From NCBI GenBank assembly GCA_963541805.1, contig CAUTVF010000002.1:1-36800 (forward strand): a stretch of 36,800 nt of DNA, given 5' to 3'. This document shows, in pieces, positions 211 to 34,100 of the stretch (position 1 is the stretch's first letter; each line of letters begins with the position of its first letter). The notes under the pieces are model-generated. The model did no database searches and had not been told where the DNA came from. It was given only the letters and a program-made list of their open reading frames with translations. A program made the position numbers and the translations under genes. This DNA is from an uncultured Alphaproteobacteria bacterium (GTDB taxonomy: Bacteria; Pseudomonadota; Alphaproteobacteria; Rs-D84; CASDRH01).

Positions 211-280
211 AAGTCGTAAATTTTTGATTTTTTAAATTTTTACGATTTTTAACCGAAGGTTTAGATTCGTGATTTTCAAA

Positions 281-348
281 GCACCATACCGGATTTTTTT
301 TGTTTTATTATATAATATATAATAAAATAAATTTAAATTCCGGCACGC
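281..348. repeat. core long palindrome (GCACCATACCGGA, AT stem-loop, TCCGGCACGC), copy 1
   Basis: Flanked by further inverted arms from 241 to 385 (tacgatttttaaccgaaggtt ... aaccgaaggttaaaatacg). Confidence 0.7.
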
Positions 349-364
349 TTAAAAATTGCGAAAA

Positions 365-379
365 TTAACCGAAGGTTAA
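365..379 (-). terminator. mini-hairpin terminator candidate after ORF 392-1114
   Basis: TTAACC-GAA-GGTTAA, followed on the minus strand by TTTTCGCAATTTTT. Confidence 0.4.
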
Positions 380-391
380 AATACGCAGGGT

Positions 392-3204: not shown

Positions 3205-4079
3205 AAAAAGCTTCTTTTAAATTCAGCATAGCACAGCAAATTACATTTACTCGTGTCACACGCAATTTTGTTTCTTGCTGAAATTTTGTATTTATAATCA
3301 GTATTTAAATCAGCTAAAACCGTAAAATCCTTACAAGACCAAAATAATTGTAATTTTTCGTCAATATCAAATCCATCTGGCTCGCAAATACATTTTTTAC
3401 CTTGGAGATTTAATAATTTTTTAATATATTCGGATTGCGAAACTAATTTTGAATTTATATAAAATTCATCAACATTCAAATTTCTTTTAACTCTATCCAT
3501 ACTAAAATTTTCAAATATAAAATTCATAACTTCCTTATATTTTTCAGTTCCAACAAGTTGGGACAGTGGAGAAATATTTAATTCACCATTTATTAATTTT
3601 GCAATTTGTTTATATTGATCTAAATATGGAATAATATTTTCAATCCTATCAATTGGTAAATTCATATTTACAACACCGTCCCACGAATTTAAAAAATTAA
3701 ACGTCTTTTCAAAATTAAAATATTTAATATGAGGACTAATCGTTACAATTATTTTTGGATTTTTAATTATTTTTTCTAAGTTTGATGTATTTGTAATAAT
3801 TTCGACGACTTTAATATTATCGACTTCGCAAAGTCTTTGGAGTTCCAAATCAAAATCTTTTATTAATGTTGGCTCTCCGCCAAGAATTGCAATAAGAAAA
3901 GTGAATTCGGAATTAAATTTTACAAAATCAATTATTCTATCGAAATAATAATGAGTATCAAAATATTTTTTATTCAATCTTGATTTCGCAAAACAATATG
4001 AACAATTATAATTACAAAACATACTAGGATATATGTCAAGTGAAAAATCAATCGGATTTTTTGCTTCAAATACTGTCAT
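3198..4079 (-). CDS. radical SAM protein with Cys-rich C-terminal (SPASM/twitch-like) extension
   Basis: CNYNCSYC motif and GGEPTL motif. The C-terminus carries seven Cys (KKCICEP, WSCKD, CDTSKCNLLC). The start overlaps the polB-N stop (ATGA). Confidence 0.85.
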   Translation of the reverse strand: MTVFEAKNPIDFSLDIYPSMFCNYNCSYCFAKSRLNKKYFDTHYYFDRIIDFVKFNSEFTFLIAILGGEPTLIKDFDLELQRLCEVDNIKVVEIITNTSNLEKIIKNPKIIVTISPHIKYFNFEKTFNFLNSWDGVVNMNLPIDRIENIIPYLDQYKQIAKLINGELNISPLSQLVGTEKYKEVMNFIFENFSMDRVKRNLNVDEFYINSKLVSQSEYIKKLLNLQGKKCICEPDGFDIDEKLQLFWSCKDFTVLADLNTDYKYKISARNKIACDTSKCNLLCYAEFKRSFLC

Positions 4080-5695
4080 ATAAGTTTTCTAGATTCCAAT
4101 TCTTTTTTAATTTCTGCCGCTTTATTGCGATGTCCAAGCATTTTCAATTTATATCTTTTTCTATTGTTGAAACCGGCTTCAATTAATTCTGGAATAATAC
4201 CTTTTTTTGATTTATCAAAATGTGTTCCAAATAGCGATCCGCATAAATTATACTTTTGCAGCAATTTCGAATATTTATCAAATCTATGAGTATCCTTGAA
4301 ATATTCATTAATGTGATATAATTCGTCTTCGCTTAAATTTAGATTTTGGATTTCCAATTGCAAATCTTTTGGCAAATCTTTGAATTCCACTAATGTTTCT
4401 GGACTAATATTAAATGCCATAATTTGAGATGGATACATACTATTGACATCAAGAGAAAAGCCATAATTACATTTTCCTTTTATTGGATCCATTACAAATC
4501 CGCCTTTTAATTGAATACCAGAAGTATCCTCTGCCTTCATATCATACGATGGTAATATTTGTTTTTTGAGATACGCAGAATTGGCAATATATTGAGCCCA
4601 CGGCATAACAGTTTTTACAGTATCTTTAATATTAACTCCGTAAATTTCTGCCATATTTGTCATTGTATTAAAAATACTCAATTTTAATTCTATTTTATTT
4701 AATATATATACATCAATAATTGCGTAATGAATAAACCATTTATTGCATATTTTAGATATTTCAGCTTCTGATTTTGCATTATATAATTCAAGTTCAAAAG
4801 CTCCCGTTGGCTTAGAATCTGGTCTAATATATCCAGAACCTGTTCGAAATCCGTCGAAAGTTTTGAAACAGTCGTGATTTACTTTTTTAAGTCCGACCTC
4901 GACTTCTGCAATATTGTCGAGAGAATACGAACTTTTTGGCTCAAAATTAAAGTTTTTATAAACTTTCATATAATCAATATACGAAATACCTGGTGAATCA
5001 ACTTCAAAAATTCCTTGATTTAAAACTAATTCATTTAATTTTGATTCTCCATAAGGACTAAAATTAAGTGGAATTCCAAGTTTTGTTGCTCTTGCAAATA
5101 GATATCCGAAGTCAAACCCTTCTCCGTTATATGCAGAAATTATAGCTGGATTTAATGTTTTTATTAGCTTAAAAAATGCAAGAATTAATTCGGCTTCTGA
5201 ATTTAATTTAAAATATTTTAATTTAAAATCAAATACTTCTCCATTAAATGTATAATTACCAGATTCGGATTCCGTATAATCAATTCCTTTGATAAAATCA
5301 GTTAAACTAAAAACAATTACAGTATTTGTTTTTGAATCATAAATCTGGATACATACAATAGTTTCAGGGAATGATTTAGTATCGACGGATCTTTTTGCGG
5401 TTGTTTCAATATCAAGAAACCAATATCTTGGAGATTTGTTATAATTTTTTTGCCAATAAAAATCGCGAATATAACAAAGATCCGGTTTATAATTACCATA
5501 AACTGGTAAATCAGTTTTTTTAGTAATGCGTCGAAGTTTAATTTCAGGATTTAAAAAATATGTAAAATCACCTGAAATGTCCTCAACATACCGTTCATTA
5601 AAGCTTGGAATTTTCTTTATTTTTGATTGATTTCCGTCAAAATATCTTATATAATAATCATAACCAATTCTAAAACTATTTTCAAATGCTTCCAT
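4076..5695 (-). CDS. gp43: family-B DNA polymerase, N-terminal fragment (3'-5' exonuclease domain, motif A, first half of fingers)
   Basis: ExoI FLDIETT, ExoII YNGEGFDFGYL, ExoIII YAIIDVY and Pol motif A LDVNSMYPSQI are present. The ORF ends before motif B. Confidence 0.9.
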   Translation of the reverse strand: MEAFENSFRIGYDYYIRYFDGNQSKIKKIPSFNERYVEDISGDFTYFLNPEIKLRRITKKTDLPVYGNYKPDLCYIRDFYWQKNYNKSPRYWFLDIETTAKRSVDTKSFPETIVCIQIYDSKTNTVIVFSLTDFIKGIDYTESESGNYTFNGEVFDFKLKYFKLNSEAELILAFFKLIKTLNPAIISAYNGEGFDFGYLFARATKLGIPLNFSPYGESKLNELVLNQGIFEVDSPGISYIDYMKVYKNFNFEPKSSYSLDNIAEVEVGLKKVNHDCFKTFDGFRTGSGYIRPDSKPTGAFELELYNAKSEAEISKICNKWFIHYAIIDVYILNKIELKLSIFNTMTNMAEIYGVNIKDTVKTVMPWAQYIANSAYLKKQILPSYDMKAEDTSGIQLKGGFVMDPIKGKCNYGFSLDVNSMYPSQIMAFNISPETLVEFKDLPKDLQLEIQNLNLSEDELYHINEYFKDTHRFDKYSKLLQKYNLCGSLFGTHFDKSKKGIIPELIEAGFNNRKRYKLKMLGHRNKAAEIKKELESRKLI

Positions 5696-5972: not shown

Positions 5973-6827
5973 TTATGCATTAAGAATATCAATTATTGGA
6001 TCGCCCGTAGTAAGAACGAATTCCTCAAATGGCGAATCAAGTCGCCTTTGTAGTCCTGGATCATAATAATCGATCTCAAAAAGTTCAAACGGAATTTGTA
6101 ATATTTGACATTCTATTATAAGTCTTGGACTACAATCAAAATGTCTTAAAACTGGAGTATAAATGAATTTACTAAAACTAAAATTACGGATTTGTTTCGA
6201 AGTAAAATTATTTTTATATTTTTCATTCTCCGTAATATCTTTAGAATCAGAATAAGCAAGAATATCCGGATATTTGTTCAAAAGTCTATCAATTTGATCC
6301 GGAGTTAATGATTTACAATTTTTTGTAATATGTGCAAATGGCCGATCTCCCGGAATTCTTTTTAAATTTGGCAATATTTTTTTAGTATAATCAATCATAT
6401 TTGGATACCGTTGATTGTATACTTTAAAATCAGCAAGTATCGAATAATCGGCATTTATTGGATCTGCGCCGCAGGCGAATACAAATATTTTTCCGCAAAG
6501 ACGATTTCTATATTTTTGAATAAACCAAAATCCGCCATCAACTATTAATATTTTTTTGCATTTCAATAAATCAAAATAATTTGTAAAAATGAAATCGGAT
6601 TTGTCAAATTTTACATTATAATGTGATTTTACAAAAGAATCAAAAGTTTCCGGCTTTACGAGCTCCGGAATTAAAACTTTTACTTTCATATGCTTAGATA
6701 GCAAATAATAGTAATCTAAACATTCGAAAATATGTCCCGAAAGACCGTGTTCTCTTGGACTTCGGAGAGTCGGAGACATTTCAAATGACGTTAAAATTAC
6801 TAAATCTGCATCTAAGTTAAGAATCAT
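5973..6827 (-). CDS. hypothetical protein, distant paralog of ORF 392-1114
   Basis: 284-aa ORF tightly packed in the operon. Shares blocks with 392-1114. Confidence 0.6.
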   Translation of the reverse strand: MILNLDADLVILTSFEMSPTLRSPREHGLSGHIFECLDYYYLLSKHMKVKVLIPELVKPETFDSFVKSHYNVKFDKSDFIFTNYFDLLKCKKILIVDGGFWFIQKYRNRLCGKIFVFACGADPINADYSILADFKVYNQRYPNMIDYTKKILPNLKRIPGDRPFAHITKNCKSLTPDQIDRLLNKYPDILAYSDSKDITENEKYKNNFTSKQIRNFSFSKFIYTPVLRHFDCSPRLIIECQILQIPFELFEIDYYDPGLQRRLDSPFEEFVLTTGDPIIDILNA

Positions 6828-6828
6828 T

Positions 6829-7266
6829 TTAATAAATCACAATATAATCATTTTTTGAGACTTGAATTGTTTTGAAATCCTTGAAATCGTCTAGCTTATC
6901 CGCCTTACAATGATACCAAACATCGCGTTTATGAGCATTATAAAATTCGGAATCGAACTCAAACCATTTCTTTCCAAACAATTCAACAACTTTACCAAAC
7001 TTACAAAAATTAGGATCAAATCCAAAATTGCGTTTTAGATACGCAAGCGGGAGTAGTCGACTAAAATCTGTAAAATCGGTAATTTTATGTTTAAATGGAT
7101 TTTGGACACAGTCAAAAAATCTGCAATTACCAATTTTGATTACTAGTCCAGCGTCCTCAAAATCCGGATTCTTTTTAAATGCCATAATAAGCCAATTTTT
7201 TGTAACATTTAATTTTTTTTGCGCTTCGTCAATATAAACGAAGTTTGAGTTTATAAACATACTCAT
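6829..7266 (-). CDS. hypothetical protein, possible N-terminal helix-turn-helix; first gene behind a promoter cassette
   Basis: 145-aa ORF with SD AAAGGA. The N-terminal segment VYIDEAQKKLNVTKNWLIMAFKKN looks like an excisionase/MerR-type HTH. Confidence 0.5.
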   Translation of the reverse strand: MSMFINSNFVYIDEAQKKLNVTKNWLIMAFKKNPDFEDAGLVIKIGNCRFFDCVQNPFKHKITDFTDFSRLLPLAYLKRNFGFDPNFCKFGKVVELFGKKWFEFDSEFYNAHKRDVWYHCKADKLDDFKDFKTIQVSKNDYIVIY

Positions 7267-7323
7267 TTAAATCCTTTCTTTTTTATTAGAATTATATAAT
7301 ATTAAAACTGAAATTTCACGTAA
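7267..7323 (-). promoter_or_regulatory. conserved promoter and leader cassette (GTGAAA, 17 nt, TATAAT, SD GAAAGGA), copy 1
   Basis: Minus-sense sequence: ttacgtgaaatttcagttttaatattatataattctaataaaaaagaaaggatttaaATG. The -10 box is at 7291-7296. Confidence 0.5.
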
Positions 7324-7346
7324 TTTAAATCGGTTGTTTTTAGCGC

Positions 7347-7381
7347 GTAGACGTAGTGCCTCTAAGATTTAGTTTGATCCC
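7347..7381 (-). promoter_or_regulatory. 34-nt conserved upstream motif, copy A (80 nt upstream of ATG 7266)
   Basis: Plus-strand spelling: gtagacgtagtgcctctaagatttagtttgatcc. Confidence 0.6.
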
Positions 7382-7482
7382 TTTTGATTTAATTATAATA
7401 TATTAAAGTTTACTAATTTTATGCATAAGCATATTTTTAGTATTTTAATTTGCGATTTTAAAAATGCAAAATTTTACACCTA

Positions 7483-7498
7483 TAACATTTAAATGTAA
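7483..7498. repeat. 16-nt palindrome family, copy 3 (TAACATTTAAATGTAA)
   Basis: One mismatch. Lies inside the 7267-7670 cassette. Confidence 0.55.
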
Positions 7499-7583
7499 AA
7501 ATTGTAATTTTTTGAATTTTTTAAACCGAGATTTTAATTTTTTTACGAATTTTAACCGAAGGTTTGGATTCGTTATTTTAAGA

Positions 7584-7649
7584 GCGCCATACCAGAATTT
7601 TTTGTTTTATTATATAATATATAATAAAATGAATTTAATTTCCGGCTGC
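7584..7649. repeat. core long palindrome, copy 2
   Basis: gcgccataccagaatttttt...tatataatatataataaaa...tttccggctgc. Confidence 0.7.
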
Positions 7650-7659
7650 TTTCAAAAAT

Positions 7660-7674
7660 TTAGCCGAAGGCTAA
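7660..7674 (-). terminator. mini-hairpin terminator candidate overlapping the stop codon of the ligase-like gene
   Basis: TTAGCC-GAA-GGCTAA, followed on the minus strand by ATTTTTG. Confidence 0.4.
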
Positions 7675-9110
7675 GATTTTGAATTTTTAAATATTTGGAG
7701 TAAAGAATTATAGAATTTATGAATTTCTTTTGGAGTATTTGCTTTAAAAAATTCGAAATTGTCAATCGAATCAATCACCTTGCTTGCAGAAATTGCACTC
7801 GAATTTCTCGGAGTTTCAACGACTTTTACTCCAGGTAAATATTTTGCAACTTGATTGGAATAGTCCTCAAATCGATCAGTTCCGCATAAAATAACATTTA
7901 TATTAATTGGACATTTACTAACAATACTTGGCAAATATCCAGAATTTACATTTATAATGTCAATACTTGGGAATGCTGCTTTTAGCATTTGATTTCTAAT
8001 AATTTCATAATTTTTTGTTTCCTTATTTGAAACAAGTGCAATTACTCCGCCATCATATTTTTTTAATCCATTTTTAATAATATCATAGTGAGCGTTTGTT
8101 AAAATTCTCATTTTACCTAAAAATAAGAAATTATTATTTCCCTCAAAATGCTGAATTAATTTCTTTTTTGCTAAACTTTGAATATCGTCTTTTATTTGAG
8201 TTAAATTTTTCTTTGGATGCTGAAACGTTATTTTATAATTCTTTATTGCATTTGAAAGGTTTATGAGCGAGTCAGAAATTTGACCTTTTAGCGGAATTCC
8301 ATTCAATAATAAATCTGCCGATTTCCCAACAAAATTCCAATAATCAGATTCTGTTGTAGAATCGGCTCTCCATTTGTCTTTTATAATTGCTCTTGCTGCT
8401 TGATCGACTTGATAAGATTGTTGAATTTTGACTTTATAATTTGGATAATTTAAAACAACACCTTCTTCCTTGCCTCCAAATTTTGAATCCAAATCAAGCA
8501 ATATTTTTGAAACTTCTGATATGAATTCCAAACAACTTTCATATGAATCTAAATCCAATTTAACTTTGCATTTAAAATCTTTTAAGAAGCCCTCAAAAAC
8601 AACCGGAGGTTCCGGAATTCTAAGTATTTTAGAATATTGACTTCTTAATGCAGTTTCAAATCCAGAAGCATTTGATTTTACAATACCATTTGAAATTCTG
8701 ATTGAACTGCTTGAATAAGCAAGAATTGTTAGGCCGTGTTTTGAATAATTTGAACTGAGAGTCGGCTTCTTCATTGCGAATTCACAAAATATTTCTGTAT
8801 TTATTGGAATTGATTTATAATTTGAAATTGTTTTTAAATGATCAAAAATTAATTTAAATTGTGAATTAGCAATTGAGCTAGTTCGGATTTCAGAATCAGT
8901 TGAATAACTATATTCATTTGGATATTGAATCTGCCCTTTATATGCAACAATAAAATCTTTTAATGGATTTCCAGAATTATCAATATGGTATAGTGATATT
9001 TTAACACCATCTATTTTTTGCTCGATTTTTACTGGATTTGTCAGTAGTTCAATAACTTTTTTATAATTATTTAAATAATTTGAAATAGGTTTAATCGAAA
9101 TATCGAGCAT
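7671..9110 (-). CDS. ligase-like covalent nucleotidyltransferase fused to an HxGH/ISxT-type (cytidylyl/adenylyl-transferase-like) C-terminal domain
   Basis: Ligase motifs: I KIDG, III EIFCEF, IV EEGVVL, V YKVKIQ. The C-terminus has FLGKMRILTNAHYDII (degenerate HxGH) and SAISASKV (ISxT-like). Ends in the rare stop TAG. Confidence 0.6.
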   Translation of the reverse strand: MLDISIKPISNYLNNYKKVIELLTNPVKIEQKIDGVKISLYHIDNSGNPLKDFIVAYKGQIQYPNEYSYSTDSEIRTSSIANSQFKLIFDHLKTISNYKSIPINTEIFCEFAMKKPTLSSNYSKHGLTILAYSSSSIRISNGIVKSNASGFETALRSQYSKILRIPEPPVVFEGFLKDFKCKVKLDLDSYESCLEFISEVSKILLDLDSKFGGKEEGVVLNYPNYKVKIQQSYQVDQAARAIIKDKWRADSTTESDYWNFVGKSADLLLNGIPLKGQISDSLINLSNAIKNYKITFQHPKKNLTQIKDDIQSLAKKKLIQHFEGNNNFLFLGKMRILTNAHYDIIKNGLKKYDGGVIALVSNKETKNYEIIRNQMLKAAFPSIDIINVNSGYLPSIVSKCPININVILCGTDRFEDYSNQVAKYLPGVKVVETPRNSSAISASKVIDSIDNFEFFKANTPKEIHKFYNSLLQIFKNSKS

Positions 9111-10585: not shown

Positions 10586-10664
10586 ATTAAATCCTTTCTT
10601 TTGATTGTATTATACCTAAATTTAGCTTAAAAATCACTGAATAAAAATATAGATTTTAAAATAA

Positions 10665-10699
10665 GTAGACGTAGTGCCTCCAAGATTTAGTTTGATCCC
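10665..10699 (-). promoter_or_regulatory. 34-nt conserved upstream motif, copy B (79 nt upstream of ATG 10585)
   Basis: gtagacgtagtgcctccaagatttagtttgatcc. Confidence 0.6.
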
Positions 10700-10932
10700 T
10701 TTTGAATATTTATTATATTCAAAAAAAGTTTACTTAATTTTATGCCTCGCATTATAAAAGTTAATTTTTTGATTTTTAATTTGGGATTTATAAAAATGCA
10801 AAATTTTACTAATTTTATACTAAAGTATAATTTGAGTAATTTTTTGATTTTTAATACAAGTTTGAATTTTTAAATGGATTTTGATTTTTTTTACGGAATT
10901 TAAACGGAGATTTTAAGTGCGTAATTTTTAGA

Positions 10933-11002
10933 GCACCATACTAGAAATTTTTATTTTATTATATAAATTTATATAATAAAATAAATTTAATTTCCGGTCG
11001 CC
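10933..11002. repeat. core long palindrome, copy 3
   Basis: gcaccatactagaaattttt...atataaatttatataataaaa...tttccggtcgcc. Confidence 0.7.
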
Positions 11003-11090
11003 TTCAAAAAATACTTATGAAATGCATAAGCATAAAATTAGTAATTTTTTGATTTGTAGATTCAAAATTTAGTAGTTAGAATATTGAAAA

Positions 11091-18658: not shown

Positions 18659-18712
18659 TTTGATATTTTATAATGTTTTAGTTTAATTTTTAAACGGAGA
18701 TTTAATTTTTAA

Positions 18713-18746
18713 GTAGACGTAATGCCTCTTGAATTTAGTTTGATCC
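18713..18746 (-). promoter_or_regulatory. 34-nt conserved upstream motif, copy C (54 nt upstream of ATG 18658)
   Basis: gtagacgtaatgcctcttgaatttagtttgatcc. Confidence 0.6.
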
Positions 18747-18892
18747 TTTTTAATATTTATATTTTATAATATTTTAGTTTACATTTTTTAAAAAATTACT
18801 AATTTTATGCTTCGTATTATAAAAGTAAATTTTTGATTTTTTGATTTTAATACGATTTTTAACCTACGGTTAATAAATTTGCAATTTTAAGC

Positions 18893-18961
18893 GCACCATA
18901 CCAGAAAATTTATTTTTATTATAATAATATTATAATAAAATAAATTTAAATTCCGGTTCGC
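18893..18961. repeat. core long palindrome, copy 4, flanked by ~43-nt inverted arms (18851-19008)
   Basis: gcaccataccagaaaattt...ataataatattataataaaa...ttccggttcgc. Arms: tacgatttttaacctacggtta... and ...aaccttcggttaaaaatcgta. Confidence 0.7.
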
Positions 18962-19115
18962 TTAAAAATTACGAATCTAAACCTTCGGTTAAAAATCGTA
19001 AAATTTTGTATTTTATAAAATCTCGATTACAAAATTATAAAAAATTCAAAATCTTAATCATTTTACATCCAAATGTTAAATTATTAATTTTTTGCAACTT
19101 TAATATGATATAATT

Positions 19116-19149
19116 GGATCAAACTAAATTCAAGAGGCACTACGTTTAC
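19116..19149 (+). promoter_or_regulatory. 34-nt conserved upstream motif, copy D, inverted (56 nt upstream of ATG 19206)
   Basis: ggatcaaactaaattcaagaggcactacgtttac, the reverse complement of the other copies. It faces the plus-strand spike gene. Confidence 0.6.
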
Positions 19150-20551: not shown

Positions 20552-20629
20552 TTTGAATTCCTTTCTCTTTTGATATTATTATATATAAAAACAACTGAAA
20601 AATTAATTAAAACTACAAATATCGTAATT

Positions 20630-20645
20630 TTACATTTAAATGTAA
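20630..20645. repeat. 16-nt palindrome, copy 5 (exact), with CGTAA/TTACG outer arms (20622-20654)
   Basis: atcgtaattttacatttaaatgtaattttacgat. Confidence 0.65.
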
Positions 20646-20676
20646 TTTTACGATATTTAATATTATATAAAATCTC

Positions 20677-21309: not shown

Positions 21310-21341
21310 TCTAAAACGGAGATTTGAAATTAGATTTTTAA

Positions 21342-21375
21342 GTAGACGTAATGCCTCCAAGATTTAGTTTGATCC
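21342..21375 (-). promoter_or_regulatory. 34-nt conserved upstream motif, copy E (89 nt upstream of ATG 21252)
   Basis: gtagacgtaatgcctccaagatttagtttgatcc. Confidence 0.6.
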
Positions 21376-21470
21376 TAATTATATCATATCAAGGTTTACT
21401 AATTTTATGCTTCGCATTATAAAAGTTAATTTTTTGAATTTTTTGTCAACGAATACAAAAAATTAATAAT

Positions 21471-21486
21471 TTAACATTTGAATGTA
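21471..21486. repeat. 16-nt palindrome family, copy 6 (TAACATTTGAATGTAA)
   Basis: Two mismatches. Lies inside the 21253-21650 cassette. Confidence 0.45.
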
Positions 21487-21519
21487 AAATGATTTGGATT
21501 TTGAATTTTTAAGCAACGA

Positions 21520-21600
21520 TTTATAAAAAATTTTTGTTTGTATATATAAATTTATATAATAAAAATTTTTTATGGTGCTGCAAATAAACCTACGGTTAAG
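21520..21600. repeat. degenerate, inverted copy of the core palindrome module
   Basis: tatatataaatttatataataaaaattttttatggtgctgc...aacctacggtt. GGTGC is on the opposite strand relative to the other copies. Confidence 0.45.
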
Positions 21601-26590: not shown

Positions 26591-27955
26591 ATGGAATTAA
26601 AAAGAACTCCAAAATCATATCATAATAAATTTACGGATGCAACAAGAATTTCGGACATCTCAATAAAGATTATTGATGCTACGAATAGTAATCAAGTTAT
26701 TATTGAGCACCAAAAAATACAAGAATATGAGCTTAGAACTCGAGATTTTATGCTTGAAGGATTTGTTCAATTTGTAAATGATATTGATTTTGAGACTTCT
26801 TTTAATAATTCAAATAATATTAAAATTGTTATTTTCTTCAAGGATCTTTATGATCGTTATTTTCAGCGCGAATTTCAAGTTACAAAAATTTTGAAATCTG
26901 AAAATGGTAATGTTAAATTTATAACTCTTAATTTTATTGACGCCATTTTTTATATAATGTCCAAAACATTTAAAGCAAAGACAATAAAATCAAAAAATTT
27001 CGAGGACTTAGTAACTCAGGTATTTGATGAATTTGTATATCCAAATCTAATTTCATCAAAACCAATTCTTACTTTTGATTTGCCAAGTTTTGAAAATATT
27101 GAAAATTCTTTATTTTCTACACTTGCAAATGGTGTTAAACAATATAGTCAAATTGCATCAAATACTCTTAATAAAGCAAAATCGGAATTATCAAAAGGCA
27201 ATATAACTGGTGCAATTAATTCAGTTAAATCCGGATTTAATAATATTTCAAAAGTTTTTGGGAATTCTAATTCAGAATTCAAATCAGAAAATCAAAATGC
27301 CGATAATTATTTCAATGTGACTCCGAATAAATCAATTTTACAAATATTGTCCGAGCAGGCAGAATTTAATGGATATTTAATGTATCAAACAAAGAGACAT
27401 ATTGTATTTTTAAAACTTGATAAAGCAAAACCCGCAAATCTTAAAAAATATACCCTTAGTTATAGCAATATTGGTGATTTTAATAGTCCAAATGATGTTC
27501 TCGAATATAAGAGAGTTGGAATTGATGGACTCCAAAAAAATGTAAAAAATAAGGGTCTTTATTTGGATCCAAGTTCAAAAGTCTTTAAAGTTCTCGAAGT
27601 TGATGCAAAATCAGAAGGCCTTACAAATACAAGTGATATCCAATATTCAAATGGAGTTGAATATTCTGAACAATACCAAAGTAATGCAAATAATATTTTT
27701 GCAAATACATATAAAAATTTATTATCAAACTCTGGTATTTTGGCTGTTGTTGTTGGACACATTTGTGATATGGAATTGTTTAGATGTGCTAATTTAAATT
27801 TAGCAGCTTCCGATACTGCATCAACTGCTCAATTTGGATCAATTAAAGAATCTGGATTTTATTTTGTAACATCGTTTACTGATAAGATTTATAATGGTCT
27901 TTATTTTTTACAACTTGTTGGATTTAGCAGATTCGATGATACTAAAATTAAATAA
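26591..27955 (+). CDS. virion structural protein, possibly gp27-like baseplate hub
   Basis: The size and the N-terminal (TRDFMLEGFVQF) and C-terminal (GFYFVTSFTDKIYNGLYFLQLVGFSR) blocks loosely resemble gp27/gpD-type hubs. Not verified. Confidence 0.4.
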   Translation: MELKRTPKSYHNKFTDATRISDISIKIIDATNSNQVIIEHQKIQEYELRTRDFMLEGFVQFVNDIDFETSFNNSNNIKIVIFFKDLYDRYFQREFQVTKILKSENGNVKFITLNFIDAIFYIMSKTFKAKTIKSKNFEDLVTQVFDEFVYPNLISSKPILTFDLPSFENIENSLFSTLANGVKQYSQIASNTLNKAKSELSKGNITGAINSVKSGFNNISKVFGNSNSEFKSENQNADNYFNVTPNKSILQILSEQAEFNGYLMYQTKRHIVFLKLDKAKPANLKKYTLSYSNIGDFNSPNDVLEYKRVGIDGLQKNVKNKGLYLDPSSKVFKVLEVDAKSEGLTNTSDIQYSNGVEYSEQYQSNANNIFANTYKNLLSNSGILAVVVGHICDMELFRCANLNLAASDTASTAQFGSIKESGFYFVTSFTDKIYNGLYFLQLVGFSRFDDTKIK

Positions 27956-27957
27956 AA

Positions 27958-27973
27958 TTACATTTAAATGTAA
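27958..27973 (+). terminator. 16-nt palindrome, copy 7 (exact), 3 nt after stop 27955; terminator candidate
   Basis: ttacatttaaatgtaa followed by attaattaattttttta. Confidence 0.5.
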
Positions 27974-28075
27974 ATTAATTAATTTTTTTATAATTTATAT
28001 ATACAAACAAAATTTTTTAAATTAAATTTTCGGTTAAAAATCAGAATTTTAAACGTAGATTTAATTTACTGACAA

Positions 28076-29134
28076 TTACCATAAATCCTCTAAATTATCA
28101 GTATTTGCTCTCAAATCATATCCAAGAGGCTCAATCATTAACTCAAGTGGAACTAAAAAGAATTTTTCAAAATTCAAATCGAAATCAATAAAATCTCTAA
28201 ATTGATTTGCAAATGTATCGGAATCAAACATAAAAATATTTGATTTAAGTGGATTTGGCTCTCTCAGATACAACATTTTATATTTTGATCCGAGTTCCAA
28301 TTTTTGAAATCTTTCGGGATTTGCATCAATATATTGATTTGTAACCAAGAAAGCTCTTGAATTAATTGGAATTGCCTTTGAAGTTTTTAAATCATAATTA
28401 TCTTTTGTTACACTGCTAACTTTTGCAATACTTGATAACGGTTGAGCCAAATAGATTTTTCTAACTTCTGCTAACCAATTTTTAATTGCATTTAAATCGG
28501 CTTTCATTAATATTTTTACAGCTTCTGAAAGATATTTTCTACAAAAACTCGGCGTCGAACTTCTAATAATATCGAGGCCGTGGACTTTTATTTTTGGCGG
28601 ATCATACCGAGTTCCTTCATCATCAAGCACTGCAATTGCATATCTTTTTTTAGCAACAAATATTGCATTTTCAAAAATTGCTTCGCGCTTTGTTACTAAT
28701 TTTCCTTTGCTAAATGCATTAAAAATATATTCAACAATTTCAGAACTTTTGTTAACAATTGGTTGAAATACACCCTCTACAATTTTATCAAGCGAATCAA
28801 CATTGTATTCAATTGGTAATTTTTTTGGGAATTCGAAATATCCGGAATCAGTATCAGCATATCGTCTATATCCATAATTCGGATTTTTGTCAATTTCTTT
28901 GCATTTTGAATCAATCAAATTTCCAAATAAATTGACATAAAACCGAGAATTGGAAGTTATTGCGCAAGCTATAATCATTTTATTAAGTAAAAATCCTGGA
29001 TTTGCAAGAGCACCATAAAGCGCATTAATCATAACTTTATATGCAAATTGCATATTATCATATGAGTCTGCAAGATCCAATTCTTGGTGATATAAATCAA
29101 GAAGTTCAGAATCTGAAAGTTCGTTTATTTCCAT
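28076..29134 (-). CDS. gp43: family-B DNA polymerase, C-terminal fragment (second half of fingers, palm motif C, thumb)
   Basis: Motif B KVMINALYGAL, motif C YADTDSGYF, and KKRYA. Confidence 0.9.
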   Translation of the reverse strand: MEINELSDSELLDLYHQELDLADSYDNMQFAYKVMINALYGALANPGFLLNKMIIACAITSNSRFYVNLFGNLIDSKCKEIDKNPNYGYRRYADTDSGYFEFPKKLPIEYNVDSLDKIVEGVFQPIVNKSSEIVEYIFNAFSKGKLVTKREAIFENAIFVAKKRYAIAVLDDEGTRYDPPKIKVHGLDIIRSSTPSFCRKYLSEAVKILMKADLNAIKNWLAEVRKIYLAQPLSSIAKVSSVTKDNYDLKTSKAIPINSRAFLVTNQYIDANPERFQKLELGSKYKMLYLREPNPLKSNIFMFDSDTFANQFRDFIDFDLNFEKFFLVPLELMIEPLGYDLRANTDNLEDLW

Positions 29135-29715: not shown

Positions 29716-29737
29716 TTGTTTTTGACTGGATTTTTAA

Positions 29738-29772
29738 GTAGACGTAGTGCCTCTAAGATTTAGTTTGATCCC
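29738..29772 (-). promoter_or_regulatory. 34-nt conserved upstream motif, copy F (82 nt upstream of ATG 29655)
   Basis: gtagacgtagtgcctctaagatttagtttgatcc, identical to copy A. Confidence 0.6.
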
Positions 29773-29910
29773 TTTTGATATTTATAATTTTATAATATTT
29801 TAGTTGACATTTTTTAAATTTCAAAAACTAACTTTTATAATGCGAAGCATAAAATTAGTAATTTTTTGATTTTTAGAGCAGATTTTGCATTTGTAAAATC
29901 AAACAATAAA

Positions 29911-31318: not shown

Positions 31319-31379
31319 AAAATGGATTTTGATTTTTTTACGGAATTTAAACGGAGATTTTGAATTCGTAATTTTAAGA

Positions 31380-31450
31380 GCACCATACCAGAAAATTTTA
31401 TTTGTTTATTATATAATATATAATAAAATAAATTTATTTTCCAGCCGGCT
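31380..31450. repeat. core long palindrome, copy 5
   Basis: gcaccataccagaaaatttt...tatataatatataataaaa...ttttccagccggct. Confidence 0.7.
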
Positions 31451-31470
31451 TCAAAAAATTAGCCGCAGGC

Positions 31471-31509
31471 TTGAATTTTGAAATTTTGAAATTTTGAAAT
31501 ATTGAAATC
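31471..31509. repeat. short tandem octamer repeat (GAAATTTT-like, about 4.5 copies) between the helicase stop and its hairpin
   Basis: ttgaattttgaaattttgaaattttgaaatattgaaatc. Confidence 0.6.
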
Positions 31510-33915
31510 TTAAAAAGCAAATGAGATTTTAATTCGATTTAAAATATCACTTAAAAAATCAATTTTTGAATATTTCTTATTTGAAGCAAGTTCAACCAGA
31601 TTAATCATTTTATCAAATTCAAAAGTTTCATCATTATATGCATTTTTAAATATGTTTTCAATTTTAACAAATAAGTTTGTTAAAACTAAATCTTTATTTC
31701 CGCTTTTTATGAAGTCATTATGATATCGATTAAAATCTGCTTTTGTATGGATTTTACAAAGCAACTTAAGATTTCTAAGTATTTTTAAATCATATTTTAA
31801 AATTTCTTTTATTAAATCTAAATCATTTGCAATTGTTAAATCAGTCAAATTATAAATTAAATCACATTCTAAATTTGATAAATTTTCAATAAAATTAGTT
31901 TCTTTTACTGATTTCGAAATAAATTGAAATGGCTTAGATTCAAGCATAATTGGAGTTTTTTCAAAATTTGATTTAACAAAATAATCAAATGATTTTTTAT
32001 AATTAACAAATAACAGATTCTTAAAAATCTCATTTTTTATTTTAAATTTGCCAATTTCGGAGATTTCAACTTCTCCATAATTATTTGTTTTAGTTAAAAT
32101 TGGATATTTTGCCTCAATATATGAATTTCTAATACTGTCATAATCAATTGGATCATATCTTTTTGTGCATTTTACATAGTATATAATCTTACTAACTTTG
32201 CGAGATCTTCTGAGCATTTGAACACTTTGGATTGGATCAACTGAATTTCCACAATCATAGTGAAAGTGATAATCAATCAAATTCATATTTGAAATACCGA
32301 CCGTAATTGTTGGACTATATAGTAAAACATCAAAATAATCTTGTTCCAGTAATTCAAGTAAACTCAAATAAAAATCTCTTAATAAATTTGGCGTTTTTGC
32401 AGTTATTGTAATGACTCGGAGTCCTTGGCTTTTAAGAAACTTTTCAATTATTTCAAGTGTTTTTAAAGCAGTCACGGAGACTGAACATTTTGATTTACTT
32501 GAAATTGCACTCAAATAATAAAAAAAGGTATTAGAATCTGGAGCTTCAAATAAATCCGCAGAGTCTTTTTTAACATTAATAACATTTAACTTATTTGGAT
32601 TTTGGATTAAATTAATGCTATAACTATTTAAAAAAGCATCGGCAATAATAAGTCTTTTTTGAAATGATTTATAAACAAACTCCAAATTATTCAGCTTATT
32701 TGTCAAATTATCAACCGAATGATTCATTAAACTAACAAATTCATCAATTATGACAACATCAAAATTATTGATATCATATTTAAAAAGACTATCATATTGA
32801 CATATTAGTGAATCTCCGATTTCATAATTAAAATCAGAGTATAGTTTTATATTAAATTTTGTATGATAATCAAATGCTATTGACCTTCTATTAGTGACTA
32901 TTAAAACTCGTAAATCTGAATCAAATGATTTTTCAATTATTTTTTTAATTAATAATGTTTTACCTGATCCCATAAAACTTTTAAGAGTTAAAACACCGGA
33001 TTTTTTAAATAGAAATTTTTCAATCAATTCTTTATGTTCATTTCCAGAAAAATCCATTGTATCAACTTCAAGACCTTCGTAATCTGAAAATATACTTGAA
33101 ATATCATAATTTTGAAAAAATTGCTTTTTAATAAAATTCCAAATATTTAATGAATTCAGCCTATTTTTATGATTCATAATATATGGATTATCATAATACC
33201 ATATATAATTTGAATCTCCATTGAATTCATATTTTATATAATTATCACCAAATTCATAAGCAATATATCCAAGATTTTTAAAAGTTTCTTGGCACATATC
33301 AATTGTATTTTTAGATATTAATTTAAATTGAATATCGGGTGATTCTGTTAATTCATATATTTTTATATTTGATTTAGGGTATTTTTTTCCAGACTCATTA
33401 TTGAATAGTATTTCCGACTTATTAATTGCAGCCGTAAAATAAGAATATCTGAGGACATCTTCATTATAATATCCTGAATTTTTTAAATCAAATTGAATCT
33501 TTGCTTGGATTTGTTTTGCTTCCTTTAGATTGCAAGATTCAATAAATAAAATACCTTTTATATTGAAGTTATCAATACCGTTGAAGCTCCTAGATTCTCC
33601 AATGATACATTTAAAATCTTTGAAATATTCAATAATTGAATTAAGATTATTTTTTGATGTAATATCAAAATCTAATAAAATATATTCAAAAGTTTGAGTG
33701 CTAAATGGCTCTAATTCTTTCTTTTTTCTATAAGTTTTAATTGGATTTTTAATATTTAGCGGAATATTAAGAATAAAATGATTTACAAGAAACTGAAATG
33801 CTTGTAAATTAGAATCAACAATAACATTTTTAAAAATAAAGGAGAAGTCCTCAAAATTGCTTTGAGGGTATTTTAAATCCGTATTTTTTACATCAAAATA
33901 TGTTATTGTTGTCAT
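31510..33915 (-). CDS. SF2-type helicase with a ~300-aa unassigned N-terminal region
   Basis: Walker A MGSGKTLL, Walker B VVIIDEFVS, motif V-like SPTITVGIS, motif VI-like QMLRRSRK. Confidence 0.75.
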   Translation of the reverse strand: MTTITYFDVKNTDLKYPQSNFEDFSFIFKNVIVDSNLQAFQFLVNHFILNIPLNIKNPIKTYRKKKELEPFSTQTFEYILLDFDITSKNNLNSIIEYFKDFKCIIGESRSFNGIDNFNIKGILFIESCNLKEAKQIQAKIQFDLKNSGYYNEDVLRYSYFTAAINKSEILFNNESGKKYPKSNIKIYELTESPDIQFKLISKNTIDMCQETFKNLGYIAYEFGDNYIKYEFNGDSNYIWYYDNPYIMNHKNRLNSLNIWNFIKKQFFQNYDISSIFSDYEGLEVDTMDFSGNEHKELIEKFLFKKSGVLTLKSFMGSGKTLLIKKIIEKSFDSDLRVLIVTNRRSIAFDYHTKFNIKLYSDFNYEIGDSLICQYDSLFKYDINNFDVVIIDEFVSLMNHSVDNLTNKLNNLEFVYKSFQKRLIIADAFLNSYSINLIQNPNKLNVINVKKDSADLFEAPDSNTFFYYLSAISSKSKCSVSVTALKTLEIIEKFLKSQGLRVITITAKTPNLLRDFYLSLLELLEQDYFDVLLYSPTITVGISNMNLIDYHFHYDCGNSVDPIQSVQMLRRSRKVSKIIYYVKCTKRYDPIDYDSIRNSYIEAKYPILTKTNNYGEVEISEIGKFKIKNEIFKNLLFVNYKKSFDYFVKSNFEKTPIMLESKPFQFISKSVKETNFIENLSNLECDLIYNLTDLTIANDLDLIKEILKYDLKILRNLKLLCKIHTKADFNRYHNDFIKSGNKDLVLTNLFVKIENIFKNAYNDETFEFDKMINLVELASNKKYSKIDFLSDILNRIKISFAF

Positions 33916-34100
33916 TTGAATATTATATTATAATTTAGTTTAAGTATTTAAAAAATCAAAATTCAAGCCTTCGGCTAAATTTTTGTATATATAAATTTAT
34001 ATATACAAACAAAAAATTTTTATAATTGGCTCAAAAAATACGAACGCAAGCCTACGGCTAAAATTTTGATATTAAATAAAAAAATTATATAGTTTTAGAA

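Follow-up and report, generated by a model that had tools for sequence, protein, structure and literature searches.

What is the long AT-rich palindrome that recurs between the operons of an uncultivated phage, and why is it larger than a standard transcription terminator? This question is raised by a DNA stretch of 36,800 nucleotides (hereafter the window), which is contig CAUTVF010000002.1 of the assembly GCA_963541805.1, filed as an uncultured Alphaproteobacteria bacterium. In a previous examination made from the letters alone (the sequence-only reading), at least five copies of a long palindrome, here termed P, had been described in it, and roles as structured RNA, replication or recombination site, nuclease or packaging signal and MITE-like element had been considered. 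Here, we find that P is never free-standing, and that it is one slot of a mosaic cassette with fixed module order. With somewhat less than even confidence, we propose that P serves as the large stem-loop in a promoter-coupled terminator cassette that is specific to this lineage and would be an enlarged relative of the promoter-early stem-loops (PeSLs) of T4-type phages.

The five copies were confirmed by matches to the core GC(A/G)CCATAC(C/T)RGA at 281, 7584, 10933, 18893 and 31380, all on the + strand. This core has 10 matches in the 0.92-Mb assembly, compared with 0 for the same pattern read backwards. The complete elements are assigned to the minus strand, at 278..351, 7581..7652, 10930..11003, 18890..18962 and 31377..31450 for copies 1 to 5, respectively. 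Copy 1 reads GCGTGCCGGAAT..AATCCGGTATGGTGC in gene sense, and its RNA folds have energies of -20.1 and -20.7 kcal/mol (z of -5.5 and -4.0). Copy 2 begins 18 nt past the stop of the gene at 7671-9110, copy 3 has the apex type TATATAAATTTATATA with perfect arms of 18 bp, and copy 4, with the apex type TTATAATA-T-TATTATAA, occupies a divergent intergenic region, while copy 5 is located between convergent genes, 58 nt past the stop of a helicase-like gene (31510-33915). When a profile made from these five copies was run against the whole assembly, 14 full and 2 end-truncated copies were identified (E = 1e-9 to 4e-20), all of which are on the phage contigs C2 (the window), C9, C20, C21, C24 and C29. 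Long palindromes in general are also concentrated on the phage contigs of the assembly. The P copies are 77-97% alike. Three contigs end inside P, namely C24 and C9 of this assembly and the Logan contig L131 of a related strain, which fits the breaking of assemblies by palindromes.

Then, where is P located with respect to the genes? Based on a map of seven repeat modules and the open reading frames (ORFs), the gene-sense order is upstream stop codon, hairpin T1, P, hairpin A, modules b, a, c and d, and the next start codon. The corresponding + strand order, d-c-(a)-b-A-P-T1, recurs on C2, C9, C20, C21 and C24, and in part on C29. When the copies are aligned together with their flanks, the conserved unit on the + strand consists of hairpin A (ACGAATTTTAACCGAAGGTTTAGATTCGT), AATTTTTAGA, GCACCATACCAGA, the AT-only stem-loop, TTCCGG followed by 4-5 variable bases and C, TTCAAAAAA, and T1. 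P itself is ~70 nt long, and its AT-only stem is closed by CCGG/CYRG and GC pairs. Judged by consensus match alone, modules b (TTAAAA-N17-TATAAT), a (TTTACATTTAAATGTAAA, with TTTACA-N17-TAAAAT) and d (GTGAAA-N17-TATAAT, with a Shine-Dalgarno site) are promoter-like, and module c is a 34-mer. Note that a sigma-70 consensus scan gave 156 hits against 143 +/- 13 in shuffled sequences, which is no excess; at 27% GC, such a scan is not informative. Between P and the upstream stop there are 18-142 nt, and between P and the next start 94-667 nt; the orientation of P is identical in 8/8 copies flanked by co-directional genes (~0.008 two-sided, under a coin-flip model). The cassettes extend over 300-500 nt and comprise at least six ordered modules, with three hairpins one after another; they flank core genes (the family-B DNA polymerase (PolB) operon and the baseplate, helicase, tail tube and gp5-like genes), not hyperplastic accessory regions. 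The earlier statement that P occupies operon boundaries, between a stop codon and the next promoter, agrees with this map, on which promoter-like modules follow P.

The hairpins on both sides of P were identified for every copy in the window, and the flanks of all the 14 full copies were folded. Hairpin A is on the + strand at 242..270 (ACGATTTTTAACCGAAGGTTTAGATTCGT, followed by a + strand T-run that points into P) and 7545..7573, with variants at 10893..10922 (ACGGAATTTAAACGGAGATTTTAAGTGCGT), 18852..18882 and 31340..31369. T1 is on the minus strand and is more diverse. At 358..386, directly past the stop of the gene at 392-1114, T1 is an A-like hairpin in inverted orientation, with a T-run, and at 18971..18999 it is an inverted copy of hairpin A. 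At 7659..7675 it is an intrinsic-terminator-like hairpin, TTAGCCTTCGGCTAA, followed by ATTTTTG, and the terminator scan listed 7660-7674 as terminator-like on both strands. At 11013..11042 an imperfect hairpin of the module-b type around ATGCTTATGCAT precedes TTTTTTG, and at 31460..31472 a TAGCCGCAGGCTT hairpin precedes a T-run in gene sense. Between the latter hairpin and the stop of the helicase gene, 4.4 tandem copies of AATTTTGA also occur (31474-31508).

In gene sense, a hairpin, T(3-7) and GAAG or TAAG immediately precede the P clamp in 16/16 flanks from three strains, while on the opposite strand hairpin A and AATTTTTAGA run into P. Because T-runs follow both flanking hairpins, P has a T-run directed at it from either side. 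The borders of P, TTTTTGAAGC and GCTCTAAAAA, are mutually complementary, and 171 nt folded on either strand gives three hairpins in series. For copies 1 and 4, the sequence-only reading had described an outward extension of the palindrome, and this was traced to a 29-nt hairpin (ACGAAT..AACCGAAGGTT..ATTCGT) present in inverted orientation on the two sides. Since T1 is an inverted A in these two copies, the whole T1-P-A block constitutes one imperfect palindrome of 150-170 nt (~160 nt for copy 4).

P is indeed structured, and larger than a standard terminator, as had been proposed. In the folding check, all ten strands (the five window copies on both strands) were more stable than shuffled sequences, with z = -2.6 to -6.2, and the predicted RNA duplex has 19-30 bp with internal loops. 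There are four apex types, in which the invariant half-sites TTTATTAT and ATAATAAA are 3, 7, 9 or 10 nt apart. All four are perfectly self-complementary over 11-18 bp, and the core is perfectly palindromic over 23-36 bp. That the spacing varies while self-complementarity is kept speaks for a hairpin or cruciform and against a duplex-DNA site for a rigid protein dimer. In 11/13 copies the gene-sense RNA is the more stable one (mean -16.6 vs -13.7 kcal/mol). The conserved ACCATA bulge of the sequence-only reading was upheld on one side only: ACCATA on the + strand is nearly invariant, while its partner side, the 4-5 nt after CCGG, is variable, and the registers differ among copies (CCA/ACC with GGT/TGG, or GGCR with UGCU). 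Most of the bulge is closed by G-U pairs in the gene-sense RNA. In Rfam 15, at the gathering score, the window has 0 matches.

The assembly also contains roughly ten sister palindromes, P', which are similar to P in size and centre (..TATATAAATTTATATA..) and are without the CCGG clamp. One is located at 21512..21583 on the + strand; it keeps TATGGTGC and is inverted relative to the other copies. The degenerate inverted copy that had been noticed near 21520-21600 is this element, and it belongs to the clamp-less subfamily. The other P' in the window, with the core GTATATATAAATTTATATATAC, is at 33966..34033 on the minus strand, between two AGCC..GGCT hairpins, and further copies are C36_3474, C20_14604 and C21_6833. 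The GCACCATACC motif is missing from all P' copies except that at 21571 of the window. The position matching TATGGT of P is TATAAT, TATAGT or TATAAC in P', directly after a T-run in several copies.

Are the cassettes conserved among related strains? Three further samples provided contigs for comparison with the window: L131, L236, and L234, which belongs to a 72-kb scaffold. The neighbouring 479-aa protein belongs to a 28-member cluster at >=90% identity, with the next relatives at ~50%, and L131, the one strain measured, is ~93% identical to the window in DNA across the 479-aa gene. After this gene, the slot holds P in the window, L236 and L131, and P' in L234. After the baseplate operon, it holds P in the window and L236, and P' in L234, and ahead of the 172-aa gene, P is found in the window, L236 and L234; neither slot is covered in L131. 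After the 240-aa gene, which is not covered in L236 and L131, P is present in the window and is inverted in place between its flanking hairpins in L234. At two loci, P is thus replaced by P' once each among the compared strains, and at another it is inverted in place. A second flipped P copy is found at the end of C9.

The nearest neighbours of individual copies are either orthologs or paralogs. For example, C2_7580 and L236_11468 are mutual best matches (91%), while C2_10929 is nearest to C24_12626 (95%) and C2_18889 to C29_191 (91%). The slot is positionally conserved, with its content exchanged among copies. Among the outcomes that together would have told against the proposal of the sequence-only reading were copies that are not positionally conserved in relatives and decay like neutral sequence; what was found is that the slots are kept in related strains and that the apex variants are symmetric and compensated. 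The P copies thus do not decay like neutral sequence. In L234, an Endonuclease_7 gene (T4 gp49-type, L234:18886-19413) is located 43 nt from the P copy that is inverted relative to the window.

From the observed anatomy of the cassette, its module order and orientation, its fold potential, the symmetric apex variants and the conservation with exchange between strains, we infer termination or insulation, RNA processing and promoter activity. The T1-P-A block would insulate the adjacent transcription units in both directions. T1 would halt most sense transcription, and A, with its T-run on the other strand, would halt antisense transcription. In read-through RNA, P would fold into a long AU duplex, which may hinder exonucleases or be cleaved by a host double-strand RNase. 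The flank that is 3' of P on the sense strand, TTTTCTGGTATGGT, resembles a T-rich, TG-extended -10 box and could be a coupled promoter, and beyond hairpin A there would follow the promoter-like modules and a leader with a Shine-Dalgarno site. Recombination between cassettes would keep the copies alike, and would occasionally flip or swap them.

Such a reading is in line with two known designs. PeSLs of T4-type phages are repeated cassettes of stem-loop, early promoter and Shine-Dalgarno site, which mediate recombination (Arbiol et al. 2010, PMC2839356; Comeau et al. 2014, PMC4122927). Here, the carrier is also a T4-type myophage; repeated intergenic stem-loops would likewise be situated shortly ahead of host-type promoter boxes, which are predicted from consensus matches, and of a Shine-Dalgarno site and start codon; TTTACA-N17-TAAAAT of module a is close to the T4/PST PeSL consensus TTTACW-N17-TAYWAT; and the copies recombine with one another. 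In promoter-coupled terminators, a -10 box follows the T-run of the terminator, and the DNA of the stem-loop may in addition be used as a protein site (Fletcher et al., bioRxiv 10.64898/2026.08.19.745784). Similarly, a -10-like box comes straight after the stem-loop and T-run here, most clearly in the sister palindromes (..AAAATTTTTTATAAT..), and the stem-loop DNA is at the position expected for a -35 box; the palindrome could serve twice. However, promoter-coupled terminators are ordinary short terminators in bacterial genomes, whereas the main P family has only a short T-run and a GC-containing TATGGT box, and its termination and initiation are putative. The cassettes are probably an enlarged version, specific to this lineage, of the terminator/promoter cassettes that T4-type phages carry.

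Several observations weigh against this proposal. PeSLs are ~100 nt long and are found among small genes of hyperplastic accessory regions, with a short GC stem, whereas the cassettes here, with their many ordered modules and serial hairpins, occur between core replication and structural genes, and the central hairpin is a 70-nt GC-clamped AT palindrome. The gene order is identical in the stretches compared, without gene gain or loss at the cassettes in three strains, and the changes seen are module-level swaps, one inversion and the replacement of P by P'. P is followed by UAUGGUGCUCUAAAAA in gene sense and by CUUCAAAAAA on the other strand; with no U-tract after the stem on either strand, it is not a canonical intrinsic terminator. 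In addition, its position between inward-pointing T-runs suggests that P is perhaps little transcribed, which weakens an RNA role. Positions relevant for a -10 box are altered in two copies, to TATGGC in copy 2 and TTTGGT in L236. The strand asymmetry in stability is weak evidence, as it rests mostly on one shared A-C versus G-U position. Finally, RNAalifold on MAFFT alignments of 13 copies, for both strands, called only the invariant inner stem, with 0 compensatory pairs. Gaps in these alignments mask the symmetric apex variants, which were therefore counted directly, and beyond such symmetric changes classical covariation support is absent.

The apparent shielding of P on both sides by the T-runs after its flanking hairpins is also what would be expected if P acted as DNA, that is, as a cruciform or hairpin for recombination, nicking or replication priming, for example an endonuclease VII-type substrate, from which inward terminators exclude transcription. 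We regard this as unlikely, although, with P lacking a U-tract, perhaps little transcribed and placed between core genes, it remains a serious rival. In copies 1 and 4, the T1-P-A block is a single imperfect palindrome, GC-clamped stems of A and T only would be expected to extrude easily, the in-place inversion and the subtype swaps between strains show recombination at the cassette, and the symmetric apex variants are the expected product of templated repair inside a hairpin. The Endonuclease_7 gene next to the flipped copy in L234 points in the same direction; however, endonuclease VII is a core T4 gene and its position is maybe coincidental, and T4-type phages recombine at any repeat, so that the swaps are no proof of a dedicated site. 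Moreover, a symmetric cruciform does not need the fixed orientation to transcription seen in 8/8 copies, and roughly two dozen sites in the assembly are many for origins. For the same reason, the single packaging signal or replication origin considered before is unlikely, given ~14 copies of P and roughly ten sister palindromes. There is also an improbable, more specific version, according to which P would be an AT-rich, transcription-free cruciform cut or nicked by a phage junction nuclease, with the breaks seeding recombination-dependent replication or loading the late-transcription sliding clamp; such a DNA-structure site would be present once per transcription unit, in fixed strand orientation.

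The remaining readings rank lower than the cassette proposal. It is less likely still that P is mainly a promoter, in which the sense 3' arm would give the T-rich, TG-extended -10 box (TTTTCTGGTATGGT), the AT palindrome would be an upstream element and hairpin A a 5' leader stem-loop. TCTGGTATGGTGC is the best conserved non-palindromic part of P, lies 10-12 nt from hairpin A where A is recognisable, and persists in the clamp-less copies C21_1761 and 21571; the sister palindromes have their -10-like hexamers at the homologous position, and promoter-coupled terminators have a matching design. P also points toward a gene cluster in the divergent regions (18893 and C9_7126), where no gene lies upstream whose transcription could be terminated. 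However, -10-like hexamers are common by chance at 27% GC, and the scan showed no excess; three better promoter-like modules (b, a and d) are already closer to the genes; the distance from P to the next start reaches 667 nt; the copy at 31380 faces the terminator of a convergent gene, with no gene to express; and the two altered copies differ at the positions most needed by a -10 box. A reading of P as a selfish or neutral palindromic repeat that lacks its own function, and that gene conversion between cassettes has homogenised or a past MITE-like (miniature inverted-repeat transposable element-like) spread has left behind, is distinctly unlikely. The restriction of the family to one phage species cluster, the chance matches that were all the exact-pattern scans gave, the lack of P in CP220 and in relatives with ~50% protein identity, the replacement of P by P' in a sister strain with gene order unchanged, and the similarity of copies (77-97%), some of them nearest to paralogs, are consistent with it. 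Nevertheless, there is no Y1 transposase, with weak TnpB-domain matches solely on non-phage contigs, and no target-site duplication or flanking direct repeat was noticed in the copies read. In addition, P is always in the same cassette slot, with fixed orientation and borders (TTTTTGAAG.. and ..GCTCTAAAAA), and not at scattered insertion sites, and the MITE-like candidate of the sequence-only reading is therefore poorly supported. Because the slot always holds a long AT palindrome, P or P', a palindrome seems to be needed there. Lastly, the perfect AT core, palindromic over 23-36 bp and upstream of promoter-like sequence, could be a duplex operator for a dimeric regulator from the phage or its host. 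This is highly improbable: a rigid dimer, which was rejected on the basis of the varying half-site spacing, would not tolerate distances of 3, 7, 9 and 10 nt, and the outer clamps and long imperfect arms would be left unexplained.

The cassette with P as its stem-loop module was further compared with other families of extragenic repeats. Repetitive extragenic palindromes (REPs) are GC-rich, bacterial, ~35 nt long, and dependent on a RAYT (Y1) transposase. Like P, the REPs of enterobacteria and their mosaic elements (BIMEs) are imperfect extragenic palindromes after genes, combined with short motifs in fixed mosaic order; unlike them, P is ~70 nt long, AT-rich and phage-borne, and is without a Y1 transposase. 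For the latter (IS200/RAYT-type, PF01797), no match was found in the assembly, while 6/14 control genomes had matches. Hairpins between the genes of phage T7 are processed by RNase III, which cleaves transcript duplexes of ~20 bp or more, and AT-rich 3'-end signals of Mimivirus follow a 'hairpin rule'. With these, P shares long intergenic duplexes with an internal asymmetric loop at transcription-unit ends and no U-tract; in contrast to them, P is a predicted duplex and a candidate for cleavage, and there is no sequence similarity. No phage-borne RNase III was identified, and the sole RNase III gene of the assembly is on the bacterial contig C57.

Could P be related to the repeats of its closest sequenced relatives? 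The repeat regions of Campylobacter phages CP220, CPt10 and CP21 consist of units of 72-86 bp that are arrayed in tandem and have the core AAACTTAAAGCAA (PMC2853527, PMC4546147). They are likewise AT-rich repeats outside genes at which assemblies break, and a role in driving recombination and module inversion has been suggested for them. However, P is dispersed, palindromic and single-copy per site, and in the window the core AAACTTAAAGCAA had 0 matches with up to 1 mismatch, and no tandem arrays of 72-86 bp period were found. In repeat region 1 of CP220 (L232:4398-5077), each 72-nt tandem unit holds TGCTTGA, a 12-nt spacer and TATACT, a layout that resembles a T4 middle promoter (Mot box and -10). 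Clamped palindromes were not found in the CP220 segment, nor in L132, a relative with ~50% protein identity. L132 has its own intergenic promoter-like repeats, AATTAAACTTTAAG, followed after 11-13 nt by (TG)ATATAAT, at 700-1180 and 6590-8800. In IMG/VR, none of the loci fetched by a 14-mer scan fits the P profile, and a protein-guided locus search with the neighbouring gene gave no relatives; clamp-to-clamp exact-pattern scans of IMG/VR and metagenome contigs gave just chance matches inside genes. As far as seen, the P family appears to be confined to one phage species cluster.

The window is the entire contig C2 (36.8 kb, 27% GC), and the assembly comprises 0.92 Mb in 83 contigs. Based on Pfam and PHROG matches, it has the gene content of a T4-type myophage, including the gp23 capsid, tail sheath, tail tube, gp5-like, baseplate, helicase and PolB genes, together with two radical-SAM genes. 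Its tail sheath protein is 61-62% identical to those of the Campylobacter group II phages CP220, CPt10 and IBB_35. Thus the window is, by its genes, a contig of an uncultivated T4-type myophage related to the Campylobacter group II phages. In a DNA similarity search against 50,697 phage records, there was no match for the window and none for P. The repeat modules were found solely on the low-GC contigs C2, C9, C20, C21, C24, C29, C36 and C63, which indicates that the bin mixes a phage with a bacterial genome. The phage-type modules and the lowest GC content (26-28%) are confined to ~8-10 contigs, while the remaining contigs have ~29-36% GC. PolB is split into two genes ~22 kb apart (4076-5695 and 28076-29134), one of which encodes the exonuclease domain and the first part of the polymerase domain, and the other the remainder. 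A tRNA scan found nothing, and an exact-protein look-up showed that the 145-aa gene downstream is not on record.

Two of the cassette modules were located throughout the window. The 34-nt motif of module c, GGATCAAACTAAATCTTAGAGGCACTACGTCTAC in gene sense, recurs upstream of operon starts, at 7339-7399, 10657-10717, 18705-18765, 21334-21394 and 29730-29790, with an inverted copy near 19116-19149. The palindrome of module a, TTTACATTTAAATGTAAA, is present ~11 times, for example at 186-219, 1160-1228, 7478-7497, 19062-19080, 20617-20658, 21471-21490 and 27955-27975, and is the only module where gaps are short. It has TTTACA-N17-TAAAAT on both strands, resembling T4 early-promoter boxes.

Because contigs end inside P, the element would explain the assembly breaks of these phages at such sites. 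Inward-facing terminators around a conserved palindrome are an unusual arrangement. The sites where close strains flip or swap sequence have also been located, which bears on the genome stability of relatives considered for biocontrol. If the proposal of an enlarged, PeSL-like cassette is true, the concept of the terminator/promoter cassette would extend from coliphage-like T4 relatives to a very AT-rich lineage of Campylobacter-type phages, and would illustrate how such a cassette is designed where GC-rich terminators are scarce, that is, with weak hairpins in series and a long clamped AU duplex.

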